64,000 nt of DNA, taken from Escherichia coli (GTDB lineage Bacteria; Pseudomonadota; Gammaproteobacteria; Enterobacterales; Enterobacteriaceae). Made by a program: the position numbers. Positions within the stretch are counted from its first letter, which is position 1; each line of letters begins with the position of its first letter. Location: assembly GCF_048403405.1 (NCBI RefSeq), contig NZ_CP183129.1; one strand, 5' to 3'. Below, in pieces: positions 15,001 to 21,000 of the stretch.

Positions 15001-18000
15001 GTCTTTTACTCCCTTGGAGACGTTAACTCTTATCAGGGAGGGAATGTGGTGATTACTCAAAGGCCACAATTTATAACTTCGTGGCGCCCGGGCATTGCTA
15101 CGGTAACCTGGAATCAGTGTAATGGTCCTGGGTTTGCTGATGGTTCCTGGGCTTACTACAGGGAGTATATTGCGTGGGTAGTATTCCCCAAAAAGGTTAT
15201 GACCAAAAATGGATATCCCTTATTTATTGAGGTTCATAATAAAGGTAGCTGGAGTGAGGAGAATACTGGTGACAATGACAGCTATTTTTTTCTCAAGGGG
15301 TATAAGTGGGATGAGCGGGCCTTTGATGCAGCTAATTTGTGTCAGAAACCAGGAGAAAAAAACCGTCTGACTGAGAAATTTGACGATATTATTTTTAAAG
15401 TCGCCCTACCTGCAGATCTTCCTTTAGGGGATTATTCTGTTACAATTCCATACACTTCCGGCATGCAGCGTCATTTCGCGAGTTACTTGGGGGCCCGTTT
15501 TAAAATCCCATACAATGTGGCCAAAACCCTCCCAAGAGAGAATGAAATGTTATTCTTATTTAAGAATATCGGCGGATGCCGTCCTTCTGCACAGTCTCTG
15601 GAAATAAAGCATGGTGATCTGTCTATTAATAGCGCTAATAATCATTATGCGGCTCAGACTCTTTCTGTGTCTTGCGATGTGCCTGCAAATATTCGTTTTA
15701 TGCTGTTAAGAAATACAACTCCGACATACAGCCATGGTAAGAAATTTTCGGTTGGTCTGGGGCATGGCTGGGACTCCATTGTTTCGGTTAACGGGGTGGA
15801 CACAGGAGAGACAACGATGAGATGGTACAAAGCAGGTACACAAAACCTGACCATCGGCAGTCGCCTCTATGGTGAATCTTCAAAGATACAACCAGGAGTA
15901 CTATCTGGTTCAGCAACGCTGCTCATGATATTGCCATAAATGGTTTATCCGGAGCCGGATAGAGTGTTGTGGATATCTGGGATGCCCCGGGAAGTCACCT
16001 TTCAGACGGGCGGAGGGCTGGTGAATGATCCGCGATTACTGAGCAGTATGGATAATCCTTTTTCACAGACTTGTCAGCAGCCAGCATTTATGTTCTTTTA
16101 TCTGAGGGAATTTATCTGTCTGCTGTGTAGGAATATCTCAGTTATACAGAAATCAGGCAGGAATAAATTGTAGTGGAAAGTCGATGTTTACCGGATGACT
16201 GATGCGCGCTTGTACACAGACAGTGTGTTTCAGTAATATGGAGAATAATGAAATGAATAACACAGACACATTAGAAAAAATAATCAGACACCAAAAAAAC
16301 AAAGACCCCGCATATCCCTTTCGGGAGCATTTGTTGATGCAACTCTGTATTCGCACAAATAAAAGAATGCAGGATAATATATCTGAATTTCTGGGGGTGT
16401 ATGGAATAAATCACTCAGTATATATGGTTCTCACCACATTATTCGCAGCGGAGAGTCATTGTCTGTCACCTTCAGAGATAAGCCAGAAACTTCAGTTTAC
16501 CAGAACTAATATTACCCGCATTACAGATTTTTTAGAAAAAGCCGGATATGTAAAAAGGATGGATAGCAGGGAGGATCGCCGTGCTAAAAAAATCAGTCTG
16601 ACATCTGAAGGTATGTTTTTTATTCAGAGGCTCACTCTTGCACAAAGCATGTATCTGAAAGAAATCTGGGGTTATCTGACCCATGATGAACAGGAACTGT
16701 TTGAAGTCATTAATAAAAAATTACTGGCGCATCTTGATGATGTCAGCTCATAAAGCGTGAAATGCCTGAGTATGCCGGATAGCTTCAGGCAAAAGAATAA
16801 TGATTCTTGCAGATGTGTTGTAAGCGTACAGCGAGGGCCGTATTGACGGGGATGTGTTATTCAGCTGGCAGTGCTATGCGCCACGGAAGCAGTTCGCTGA
16901 CCCGGTTGACCGGCCAGTCTGCTATGACGCCAGGCACATGGCGAAGGTAGCTTTCTGGATCCACGTCATTCAGTTTGCACGTCCCGATCAGGCTGTACAG
17001 TAGTGAGGTAGCCTGAGTTTAACGGACACTCCTTCCTGAAATAGAATGGCATCAGAAGGAGCTAAGTAAGCGTGCAGCAAGAACCGTATTGACGGGGATG
17101 TGTTATTCAGTCGGCAGTGCTACGCGCCAGGGGAGCAGTTCGCCGACCCGGTTTATCGGCCAGTCGGCTATGACGTCAAGGACATAGCGGAGGTAGCTTT
17201 CTGGCTCCACTCCGTTCAGTTTGCACGTCCCGATCAGGCTGTACACGGGGTAGTGATTCAGGGAACGGCTTACGGGTGCGGGTCTGACGCAACGGACGCT
17301 GTACTGCCGGGTCATACACCCTACCAGTCAGCGTATCGCTCTCTTTCTGAAGCCGGTTCAGATCGGCTTCCATTTGTGCGATACGGCGGGAGACTTTTTC
17401 GGAACGACTGCCGAAGTTCATCCGGCGGAGTTTATCCAGCTGCGCCTGCAGATGGTCTATTTCGCGCTCCCGGTTGCTCAGCTTTTCCTGCAGGGCGTGG
17501 ATCAGCGCTTCCTGTTCGGCCAGGCGCTGTTTCAGCAGGAAGATGTCGTCAGAAGAGATGTCGTTCATAAGCCCGTATTTTACCGGGCTTATTCTGTGAC
17601 AACCAGGATAAAGAGATTTACAGCATGGTCAGGGAGGTCAGCAGCCGCTTAGGCTGTCGCCAGTCGATACCTTCCAGCAGCATCGCCAGCTGCGCCTGTG
17701 TAAGGAACACTTTGCCATCACGGGCTGACGGCCAGGCGAAGCGCCCACGCTCCAGCCGTTTGGTCAGGAGGCACAGTCCGTCACCGGTGGACCACAGCAG
17801 TTTAACCTGACTGCCGCTGCGGCCCCGGAAAATGAAAACATGGCCGGACATGGGATCGTCTTTCAGCGCCGTCTGTACTTTCGCAGCCAGGCCGTTGAAG
17901 CCATTTCTCATATCGGTGATACCGGCAACCAGCCAAATTTTGGTCCCGGAAGGTAACGGGATCATCGCTTCAGTTCCTGTATCAGCAGAGTCAGGAGCTT

Positions 18001-21000
18001 TTCGCTGACATTGCCATTGAAGCGGAGCGTCCCGTGCCGGAACGTTACCTCACAGCTGATACTGAGGGTTTCCGGGTCCTCTGCGAGCGATTCTGGCTGT
18101 TCGGCAGCTGCATCGAGAGTCACAGGAAGTAGCTGGGGGCTCTCTGAAGAAGGTAATAGCAGCTTTCCCTCGCGCCATTGTTGTCGCCATTTGAACAACA
18201 GATTGGCGTTAATGCCATTTTCAAGAGCAAGTTTTGAGATGGATATCCCGGGTTCACAGGAGGCAGCAACGAGCTGCTGTTTAAATTCGGGAGGATAATT
18301 AGGGCAGCCTTTTCGCCTGCCGGGAGTCACATTTTTCTGCATATCTGACACTTTGGTTCCCACTACTTATTTGGTGGACACCACTTTGTCTAATTTGTCA
18401 GATTCTGACCAGACGGTTCAGGCTGTACGCTTACAGAGCTAATAATGAGCAGAAAAAACCAACGTTACTCTAAAGAGTTCAAAGCCGAAGCTGTCAGAAC
18501 GGTTCTTGAAAATCAACTTTCGATCAGCGAAGGCGCTTCCCGATTATCTCTTCCTGAAGGCACTTTAGGACAATGGGTTACCGCCGCCAGAAAAGGGCTC
18601 GGTACTCCTGGTTCCCGCACGGTGGCTGAACTGGAATCTGAAATTCTGCAACTGCGTAAGGCGTTAAATGAAGCTCGCCTTGAGCGAGATATATTAAAAA
18701 AAGCAACAGCGTATTTTGCACAGGAGTCGCTGAAAAATACGCGTTAATCGAACAATGGCGACAACAATTTCCCATTGAAGCGATGTGTCAGGTATTTGGT
18801 GTATCCAGGAGCGGTTATTACAACTGGGTACAGCATGAACCCTCAGACAGAAAACAAAGTGATGAGCGGCTAAAACTGGAGATTAAGGTGGCACATATCC
18901 GCACTCGCGAAACATATGGAACCCGGCGGCTCCAGACGGAGCTGGCAGAGAATGGCATCATCGTTGGTCGTGACCGACTGGCACGTCTTCGTAAGGAGCT
19001 AAGGCTACGCTGTAAGCAGAAACGCAAGTTCAGAGCGACTACGAACTCGAACCACAATCTGCCAGTTGCGCCAAATCTGCTGAACCAGACGTTCGCTCCT
19101 ACAGCACCAAATCAGGTCTGGGTGGCGGACCTGACGTATGTTGCCACACAGGAGGGATGGTTGTACCTCGCTGGCATCAAAGATGTTTATACGTGCGAAA
19201 TTGTCGGCTACGCCATGGGAGAGCGCATGACAAAAGAGCTGACAGGTAAAGCCCTGTTTATGGCGCTCAGGAGCCAGCGCCCACCTGCCGGGCTAATCCA
19301 CCACTCTGATCGAGGTTCACAGTACTGCGCATACGATTACCGGGTCATACAGGAGCAGTTTGGTCTGAAAACATCAATGTCGCGTAAAGGTAACTGTTAC
19401 GACAACGCTCCGATGGAAAGCTTCTGGGGAACGCTGAAAAATGAGAGCCTGAGCCACTATCGTTTTAATAACCGGGATGAAGCCATCTCAGTAATACGGG
19501 AATACATTGAGATTTTCTACAATCGTCAGCGTCGTCACTCTCGTCTGGGGAATATCTCCCCGGCAACCTTCAGGGAAAAATATCATCAGATGGCTGCTTA
19601 AAAAAAGAACAAATGGTAGTATCCGCTATTGCCAGTACACCTCACTCCCCTGACTCCACCTCACAGCGGATTGTGTATTTTTAAACAATCACAGTCTTCT
19701 CATATACTTTCCATTCTGAAGCTTACCTCTTCCTCTGTGATAAGCTTCCGTCGCGGGATGTGTTATACGCCCTGTAAGACAGTTATAAAGGACATCAATG
19801 CCATAGTTAATGACTACCGAATTCCAGTGGATAGTCAGTACTGGTTTGCCACAAAACAGTGCAGTCACACATGACAGGAGAAGATATGAGCCGGATACCG
19901 CGGCTCTGAGACTTAACGCTCATGTAAACTTTCTGTTACAGACTCTTCCAGAGGACTAAGAAGATAGCTGATTACGCTTCGCATTCCAGTCTTTATTTCT
20001 GCAGTGACAGCCATACCCGAGCTTAATGGAATGTGCTTATTCCCGGTTGACAAATCATTCTCTTCAACAGAAACAATGACATTAAAAACGAGTCCCAGTT
20101 TCTGGTCTTCTATTGCATCTAAATTTATATTTTTCACCTTACCCACCAGATAACCATATCGGGTGTAAGGAAAGGCCTCCACTTTAATGATGGCATTCTG
20201 CCCGACGTTAATAAAACCAATATCTTTATTTTGTACCAGAGCAGTAACCTCCAGCGTGTCATCTTCCGGAACGATGACCATCAGTGTTTCCGCTGTTGTA
20301 ACAACCCCACCTTCAGTATGAACCTTCAGTTGCTGAACTTTTCCCGAAACAGGGGCCCTGATTACTGAAGCCTGTTGACGCTCTTCATTTTTCTCTAACT
20401 CCAGAGTTAATAACTCAATGTTGTCTGTTGTTTGTCTTAGCTTGTCTAAAATTTCATTTTTAAAAAGCTGCGTGACAAGCTGATATTCTTCTTTTGCAGA
20501 CAATATCTCACTCTCAATTTGCTCCAGTTGCGATTTATAAACCCGTAATTCATTTGCTGCCTCGACATATTTATTCTCCTGCTCAAGTACAGCATGTTTT
20601 GCAATTGCCTGTTTATGCAATAAACTCCTGAAATCATCCAGACGGCTTTTTTCAACTCTCGATAAATTTTCATAACGGTTTATACGGGCAAGTATTGTTA
20701 ATCGCTCTGCTCTTTTCTTATCCAGATTCAGTTCTTTTTGATACTTCTGATTTTGCCATGTGGAAAACTGTTCTTTTATCAAAGAAGTTAAACGCAGTAC
20801 TTCCTCTTCAGATACATTCTGAAAATAAGGCTCATCAGGAAGCTTCAGTTCAGGTAGTTTATTTAATTCAATTGACCTGCTCAGAATTTGATACCGAGTT
20901 TGTTCCAGCCTGGTCTGTAACAGTGATGACTGTGTTTTTAACGTATCAGCTTCAGCTCCCAGTGCTGTAAGCTTTAATAACACATCCCCTTTCCGGACTG

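Follow-up and report, generated by a model that had tools for sequence, protein, structure and literature searches.

The interval of about 3.16 kb that separates papX from hlyD in the CFT073-type pheV pathogenicity island raises the question of how the operons pap and hly became neighbours, and of what the DNA between them amounts to. The interval was analysed in a stretch of 64,000 nucleotides of Escherichia coli (contig NZ_CP183129.1 of the assembly GCF_048403405.1; hereafter the window), which represents an island of this type from beyond papI to the tRNA-Phe gene. It is filled with nested insertion sequences (ISs), namely an end fragment of an ISEc8-type element of the IS66 family, designated A1, an IS600 whose left end follows directly on this fragment, and an internally deleted ISEc8 variant, designated E2, lying inside the IS600. 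As judged from the alignments, it is the IS600 that forms the actual joint of pap and hly, through a rearrangement at its right end, and the history of four stacking steps set out below is held, as a whole, with high confidence. A nested stack at this place, beginning at 16820, had been proposed in an initial annotation made from the sequence, and its start proved exact to the base.

As a structure the nest matters little, both ISs being familiar, the genome having been publicly available since 2002 and every fragment being annotated in RefSeq, where papX is followed by three IS66-type 'transposase domain' pseudogene pieces, an IS66 tnpB and tnpA, an IS600 transposase with programmed frameshift, and hlyD. 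Over the 3251 bases around the nest there is 100% identity to CFT073 (NC_004431.1, reverse strand), to ATCC 25922 and to further strains of E. coli, and at least 80% of the nest region is covered in 67 of 5,426 complete genomes. The additions made here are modest and comprise corrected boundaries, a natural empty site, a composite moved through a surrogate end, and two independent IS66-mediated losses of the hly segment; a literature search returned no description of this IS nest or of the composite formed by A1, the first 62 bp of the IS600 and E2.

Order of the elements between papX and hlyD

The native DNA of the pap side continues for 66 bp past the end of papX (16753) and closes with GATGTGTT; homology to the other sampled papX/sfaX loci ends at the same point (16819), and in the IS-free pap island of the strain 24AR0070 GATGTGTT is followed by TTTCCGG, the sequence running on for 3.5 kb. 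GATGTGTT is presumed to be the target of the original ISEc8 insertion, the partner copy of which was lost. Over its 184 bp, the adjoining A1 agrees at 100% with many ISEc8-like elements in their tnpC-proximal ends and at 97.3% with positions 1-184 of a reference ISEc8, the identity holding from the terminal repeat of that end (GTAAGCGTACAG) on, and its minus strand encodes the Pfam domain DDE_Tnp_IS66_C (E=1e-15). The initial naming of A1 as an IS66 left-end remnant was right as to the family and as to its leftmost place in the window, but within the element this is the tnpC-proximal end, i.e., that of the right inverted repeat (IRR). Native ISEc8 runs past position 184, exactly where the IS600 begins after A1, and the left tip of the latter at 17004 (TGAGGTAGCC...) is that of the copies in pCP301 and pC16EC0268-3, so that the truncation of the IS66 remnant by the IS600 left end is borne out by the reference alignments.

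Taken together across E2, the two parts of the IS600 (17004-17065 and 18443-19644) make up 1264 bp and align without gaps to the intact IS600 of pC16EC0268-3, with 5 mismatches (99.6%). This length, the imperfect terminal repeats TG...CA, an orfA with helix-turn-helix and an orfB with a DDE domain of the rve type, and the -1 frameshift at an A6G motif agree with an IS600 of the IS3 family. The copy in pCP301 was dropped as a reference for the right end, being truncated by an IS2 at position 1244, and that of pC16EC0268-3 was used instead. Other IS600 copies, sampled among 3,184 records with a match, end at 19644/19645, and the IS600-free hly islands start to match the window at 19645; the right tip is thus placed at 19644, 19 bp ahead of the end at 19663 given initially. 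This end and the naming of A1 are the only points in which the reference alignments amended the proposed boundaries, all others having held. The 19 bp past the true tip (19645-19663, CTCCCCTGACTCCACCTCA) hold a second CCTCA that mimics the tip and makes an easy trap for a boundary set by eye. The 3-bp target duplication usual for the element is absent from this copy, flanked by TAG (17001-17003) vs CTC (19645-19647), and present around the intact IS600 of pC16EC0268-3 (ATG/ATG); its absence is read as the result of a later rearrangement at one end and not as evidence against the identity of the IS600.

E2 has the terminal repeats of the IS66 family (GTAAGCG), but of the three genes tnpA, tnpB and tnpC, the last is destroyed. 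In comparison with full-length relatives, 1073 bp (element positions 181-1253) are gone, with a CA microhomology at the join, which confirms the proposed internal deletion of the IS66-family element lying between the IS600 inverted repeat and orfA. What remains of tnpC is an N-terminal piece of 108 amino acids and a C-terminal piece of 47 amino acids, out of frame with each other, recognized in Pfam as LZ_Tnp_IS66 (17245-17568) and DDE_Tnp_IS66_C (17103-17246); the deletion junction is contiguous in 50 genomes. Positions 1-180 of E2 are 100% identical to the copies in TW14425 and NCTC86 and 90% identical to classical ISEc8, while positions 179-1369 correspond to element positions 1252-2442 at 99.5-99.9% (99.5% for the 2443-bp element of TW14425 and 99.7% for ISEc8). 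In the relatives of the IS66 family, ISEc8-type and ISEc22-type stretches are combined into mosaics, the boundaries of which differ from copy to copy; a mosaic switch in the E2-like elements at about position 180 was considered and rejected, as a sliding comparison places it at about 400 in TW14425 and at 850-1000 in NCTC86. Full-length copies of the E2 type with the same ends occur with a duplication of their own, e.g., GTGGAAAA in TW14425. By its sequence E2 is a deletion derivative and not an autonomous member of the family; having retained its two ends as well as tnpA and tnpB, it would depend for any movement on a transposase supplied in trans.

The 8-bp repeats at the two sides of E2, GGAGCTAA and AGAGCTAA, are equal in 7 of 8 positions (for at least 7/8 at fixed positions, p = 25/65536 = 3.8e-4). 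Their initial reading as an IS66 target duplication is upheld by the canonical uninterrupted IS600, which has a single GGAGCTAA, and by the empty site found in nature in the strains S14 and E19, where papX and A1 are followed by an uninterrupted IS600 with a single GGAGCTAA (100% identity) and then by hlyD; the proposed layered history survives as well, each of its steps also withstanding the reference alignment. Since the IS600 and the empty site carry a single GGAGCTAA, the G-to-A change at 18435 came later; it turns the orfA Shine-Dalgarno sequence GGAG into AGAG.

The likeness of A1 to the beginning of E2 can be explained in another way, namely by a local tandem duplication, with a period of 246 bp, of one IS66 end together with the IS600 tip, in accordance with the direct repeat of 180 nt at 246-bp spacing returned by a repeat search and with both copies stopping within 4 bp of one element position. 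However, the copies are only 86-88% identical (159/184 positions; 88% over 180 nt), and E2 has an 8-bp duplication and an empty site of its own. Because the two copies match, each at 100%, separate pre-existing alleles (A1 the common ISEc8 ends, positions 1-180 of E2 the TW14425/NCTC86 type), this explanation is already refuted, the probability left to it being negligible.

E2 parts orfA from the sole promoter-like site of the IS600 left end (17019-17047). Because orfA is cut off from this promoter-like region and its ribosome-binding site is weakened, the IS600 is probably silent despite the intact orfAB. A co-opted function of the whole stack in the expression of papX or hlyCABD, as a promoter, terminator or insulator, might be supposed from its position between two convergently oriented virulence operons and from its conservation, with 100% identity over the top matches and the wide coverage in the 67 genomes mentioned above. 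However, such an identity reflects recent clonal descent, both operons end here and neither starts, promoter-like sites are 2 in number vs 2.9 expected in shuffled sequence, and no Rfam match occurs in 16000-20500; pap is also found without the stack (24AR0070), and hly with other downstream neighbours. Co-option is, therefore, considered highly improbable, and the interval is very probably an inert pile of transposition and recombination scars of the ordinary kind.

IS600 as the joint of the pap and hly sides

On the far side of the point where the hly-cnf1 islands start to match the window, and where the IS600 abuts in CFT073, these islands carry a urea-transporter gene; the IS600, therefore, marks the edge of a conserved hly module. 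The urea-transporter gene is full-length or truncated in other hly islands, and in p4A it is followed by cnf1. On the pap side, the 3.5 kb that lie beyond 16819 in 24AR0070 contain a GTP-binding pseudogene, an outer-membrane protein gene and a phosphoethanolamine-transferase gene, and this sequence resumes in the window at 35142, so that the segment 16820-35141 (18.3 kb) stands in place of 3.5 kb of native pap-island DNA (24AR0070 locus 4261-7781). The segment comprises the IS nest, hlyCABD, oxidoreductase genes and a two-component system, and is bracketed by directly oriented IS66-family ends. The second of these belongs to an ISEc22-like element (32688-35141) in the orientation of E2, the first 180 bp of which are identical to those of E2 in 178 of 180 positions. 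The ISEc22-like element has no target duplication (TTCCATGG / GAATCAGC), cuts the phosphoethanolamine-transferase gene short, and carries an internal stop in its RefSeq tnpC.

The following sequence of events would account for the present arrangement. In the first step, an ISEc8-type element would have inserted into GATGTGTT, 66 bp past papX. In the second step, an IS600 would have come to be situated within that ISEc8 after position 184, and the DNA to the right of the IS600 would then have been swapped, so that the IS600 came to link the pap side, with no 3-bp duplication, to native DNA lying 268 bp past hlyD. In the third step, a full-length mosaic E2 would have inserted into the IS600 between positions 62 and 63, two bases ahead of the orfA start codon (18445), with duplication of GGAGCTAA. 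In the fourth step, placed in the CFT073/ATCC 25922 group, a deletion at the CA microhomology would have removed 1073 bp of the E2 tnpC, and the second duplicate would have undergone its G-to-A change. The junctions concerned are found in about 110 genomes for papX/A1, in 97 for A1-IS600-E2 and in 48 for IS600/hlyD.

In many plasmids of E. coli that produces Shiga toxin (STEC), such as pE2865-2 (about 2880-3300), an A1-type end next to espP extends to position 208, 24 bp more than in the window, and is followed by the IS600 left end. The A1/IS600 junction of the window may be this STEC-type junction minus 24 bp, or it may be an independent IS600 hit. Two other candidates for the same junction were set aside, these being the ISEc8-IS600 adjacency of O157:H7 EDL933, which is a different insertion with an intervening helix-turn-helix fragment and a truncated IS600, and the matches of the SCU-101 type, whose pieces (the IS600 5' part and the ISEc8 end) are not collinear. 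This IS600 was also struck independently by IS30 in C 691-04A (locus 2571-3722) and in S14 (locus 5398-6549), the two insertions having neither position nor orientation in common.

The cut of A1 (position 184) and the start of the E2 deletion (180) fall 4 bp apart in an element of 2442 bp, with a chance of roughly 9/2442, and a breakpoint hot spot might be assumed, with the IS66 transposase binding or nicking the internal positions 165-180 (CCGATCAGGCTGTACA) as a mimic of the left terminal repeat in its inner part (ACGGTTCAGGCTGTACGCTTAC). The internal site and the terminal repeat do share an exact match of 11 nt (TCAGGCTGTAC), and the STEC plasmid IS600, lying 24 bp further in, would make this a region possibly struck more than once. 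However, the two further right-end fragments of ISEc8 that were examined (Z226-5 and O111:H8) are cut elsewhere, terminal cleavage would place the breaks at another distance from GTAC, and the E2 junction resembles an ordinary deletion at a 2-bp microhomology; moreover, many coincidences could be noticed, and one of about 0.4% is weak evidence. A hot spot is thus regarded as unlikely. The junctions 17003/17004 and 17245/17246 both have GGCTGTACA followed, after 0 or 4 nt, by GTAGTGA, possibly by chance.

Several points weigh against the four-step history and the inferences attached to it. In view of the STEC plasmid junction, the order of its first two steps is not fixed, and the ISEc8 may have reached papX with the IS600 within it. 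The state of the strains S14 and E19 could in principle have arisen by reversion, e.g., through gene conversion from another IS600, and not be ancestral. No genome in which a full-length E2 is still followed by the IS600 and hlyD was identified, the existence of this stage being deduced from SCU-482 and from the composite copies described below. The proximity of the A1 cut to the start of the E2 deletion is treated as a coincidence, with an a priori chance of roughly 0.4%. Finally, the silence of the IS600 and the mobility of E2 in trans are both inferred from the sequence.

Table 1. Coordinates of the papX-hlyD interval and of the distant IS66-family element in the window
Feature	Position	Strand	Basis or remark
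papX, final gene of the pap operon, anchoring the junction on the left	16202..16753	+	RefSeq WP_001298062.1; open reading frame list
GATGTGTT, final 8 bp of native pap-island DNA ahead of A1	16812..16819		Comparison with IS-free 24AR0070
A1, tnpC-proximal (IRR) ISEc8-type end, 184 bp, element positions 1-184	16820..17003	-	Identity, Pfam, alignment
IS600 positions 1-62 (left inverted repeat, promoter-like site 17019-17047, Shine-Dalgarno GGAG)	17004..17065	+	IS600 alignments
Target duplication copy 1, GGAGCTAA, IS600 positions 55-62	17058..17065		Direct reading
E2, ISEc8 variant of 1369 bp with two intact terminal repeats	17066..18434	-	Alignments
E2 terminal repeats GTAAGCG...CGCTTAC	17066-17087 and 18413-18434		Inverted-repeat search
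E2 deletion junction, element position 180 joined to 1254	17245..17246		Alignment to full-length relatives
E2 tnpB, intact	17618..17965	-	Pfam TnpB_IS66, E=1e-38; RefSeq WP_000612591.1
E2 tnpA, intact	17962..18342	-	Pfam HTH_Tnp_1; RefSeq WP_001171554.1
Target duplication copy 2, AGAGCTAA	18435..18442		Direct reading; reference IS600 aligns from position 56 at 18436
IS600 positions 63-1264	18443..19644	+	Right tip ...CACCTCA at 19644
IS600 orfA	18445-18747	+	Pfam HTH_Tnp_1
IS600 A6G frameshift motif (AAAAAAG)	18697-18703	+	Motif search; RefSeq annotates programmed frameshift
IS600 orfB	18783-19601	+	Pfam rve
Native hlyD-distal spacer, 268 bp	19645..19912		hly-cnf1 islands match from 19645/19647 on
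hlyD, right anchor of the junction	19913..21349	-	RefSeq WP_000860472.1
Second IS66-family element (ISEc22-like), E2 orientation	32688..35141	-	Apparent recombination partner in hly-less islands

Mobility of the composite and loss of the haemolysin genes

The block formed by A1, the 62 bp of the IS600 and a full-length E2 is 2688 bp long, so that 246 bp are carried beyond E2, and it occurs as such at sites unrelated to the pap locus. In NCTC86, it lies in an IS30 end with a perfect 8-bp duplication, ATTCAATC, on both sides, and the removal of the block and one duplicate restores a continuous IS30 end, with 99.6% identity across the join. In the IncF plasmids of ExPEC (IncFIA/FIB/FIC), it adjoins RepB, with another perfect 8-bp duplication, GGAAATAC. 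In the window, the flanks of the block (GATGTGTT/AGAGCTAA) differ and E2 is deleted. Because of the perfect 8-bp duplications at two new sites, the composite appears to have transposed as a unit from the outer end of A1. Before the deletion of 1073 bp, the outer end of A1 and the far end of E2 would serve as a pair of IS66 ends; it is thus quite likely, on the evidence of these sites, that the orphan A1 end was recruited as a surrogate outer end, giving a three-ended unit of 2688 bp that has transposed at least twice. A 22-kb 'plasmid' record with the block (CP088753.1) was not counted as a further insertion, since it has the left flank of the pap locus and a noisy annotation and is probably a chromosomal fragment.

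As the unit demonstrably transposes, it could also have reached the pap locus ready-made, in which case islands of the type found in the strain THO-008, which hold just a composite-like block between papX and the phosphoethanolamine-transferase fragment, would represent the ancestral state, and the remainder of the IS600 together with hly would have been added later. However, no duplication surrounds the block at the pap locus (GATGTGTT vs AGAGCTAA), the IS600 resumes exactly at 55/63 after E2 to give its gapless 1264 bp, which a later addition would not produce, and S14 and E19 carry A1, the uninterrupted IS600 and hlyD in the same context. The ready-made arrival is, therefore, very unlikely. 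Since the flanks of the block differ and the IS600 continues exactly after E2, the pap locus is best taken as the birthplace of the composite and not as its landing site, in line with the stepwise assembly of the stack in place.

E2 and the ISEc22-like element 15.6 kb off are direct repeats, and recombination between them would excise the IS600 and hlyCABD. Two strains, THO-008 and SCU-482, have an island in which the window sequence 10941-17245 is joined to about 32868-38867, with 15,622 bp gone, including the IS600 and hlyCABD, and with papX, A1, IS600 positions 1-62, an IS66 hybrid and the truncated gene of the transferase in this order. The informative sites place the crossover between the element positions 29 and about 1067 in THO-008 vs 1451-1475 in SCU-482, and because these points differ, two separate losses of hly are indicated. 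The SCU-482 tract includes positions that are absent from the CFT073 E2; the event in this strain required a full-length E2, and the 1073-bp deletion, therefore, came later. The loss of hly, as represented by these natural recombinants, thus fits recombination between E2 and the ISEc22-like element. In CFT073, the deletion has reduced the near-identity with the ISEc22-like element at the tnpC-proximal end of E2 to 180 bp, and this smaller recombination substrate should stabilise hly in the CFT073 lineage. The suggestion of the initial annotation that the nest could be a hotspot for the rearrangement or loss of either operon is consequently supported on the hly side, by THO-008 and SCU-482 and by the extra IS30 insertions, but no evidence was found for the loss of pap.

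Thus, the nest records how pap and hly became neighbours, through a join mediated by IS600, in which 3.5 kb of the native DNA of the pap island were replaced, and it provides a concrete natural route of haemolysin loss, through IS66-family recombination, taken at least twice independently, as well as a natural example of an IS66-family element that would move adjacent DNA through an orphan outer end. Further IS remains lie on the opposite side of the pap operon, upstream of papI, at about 5066-6278 and about 3585-4326, where the RefSeq annotation has a frameshifted transposase of the IS3 family, provided with an AL1L pseudoknot feature, and a fragment of ISL3.

Comparison with known systems

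The element at the joint is like IS600 of the IS3 group in the IS3 family, known from Shigella and E. coli, in its TGAGGT...ACCTCA ends and in the 1264 bp that are left after the removal of E2 and one duplicate, and differs from it in being split at position 62/63 by E2, in the Shine-Dalgarno sequence AGAG and in the missing 3-bp duplication. ISEc8 of the IS66 family (2442 bp, E. coli O157:H7) shares with E2 the ends, the 8-bp duplication and the RefSeq accessions of tnpA and tnpB; E2, in contrast, is without positions 181-1253 and has first 180 bp of the ISEc22/TW14425 type, which makes it a mosaic, and A1 is only a 184-bp end fragment of such an element.

The use of surrogate or alternative ends is familiar from other families, where ISEcp1 uses alternative right ends, and IS911 and IS10 use surrogate ends. 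The composite resembles these in that a transposase-proficient element carries adjacent DNA by means of a second, outer end, here that of A1. However, the outer end is in this case a genuine orphan end of the IS66 family and not a degenerate look-alike, and the cargo is only IS debris. A literature search returned no report of surrogate-end mobilisation for IS66-family elements; if true, the case would show, by direct evidence from genomes, that the transposases of the IS66 family can mobilise the DNA beside them by way of alternative ends, in the manner of ISEcp1.

A deletion between two IS66 copies has been described in the Agrobacterium plasmid pAt15955, where it was recognised by mismatched 8-bp flanks (PMC6778807). 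The hly-less islands are alike in that directly oriented IS66 copies would have yielded one hybrid with non-matching 8-bp flanks and the deletion of the intervening DNA, and differ in that the partners are diverged (an ISEc8 variant and an ISEc22-like element) and that the 15.6 kb lost contained hlyCABD.

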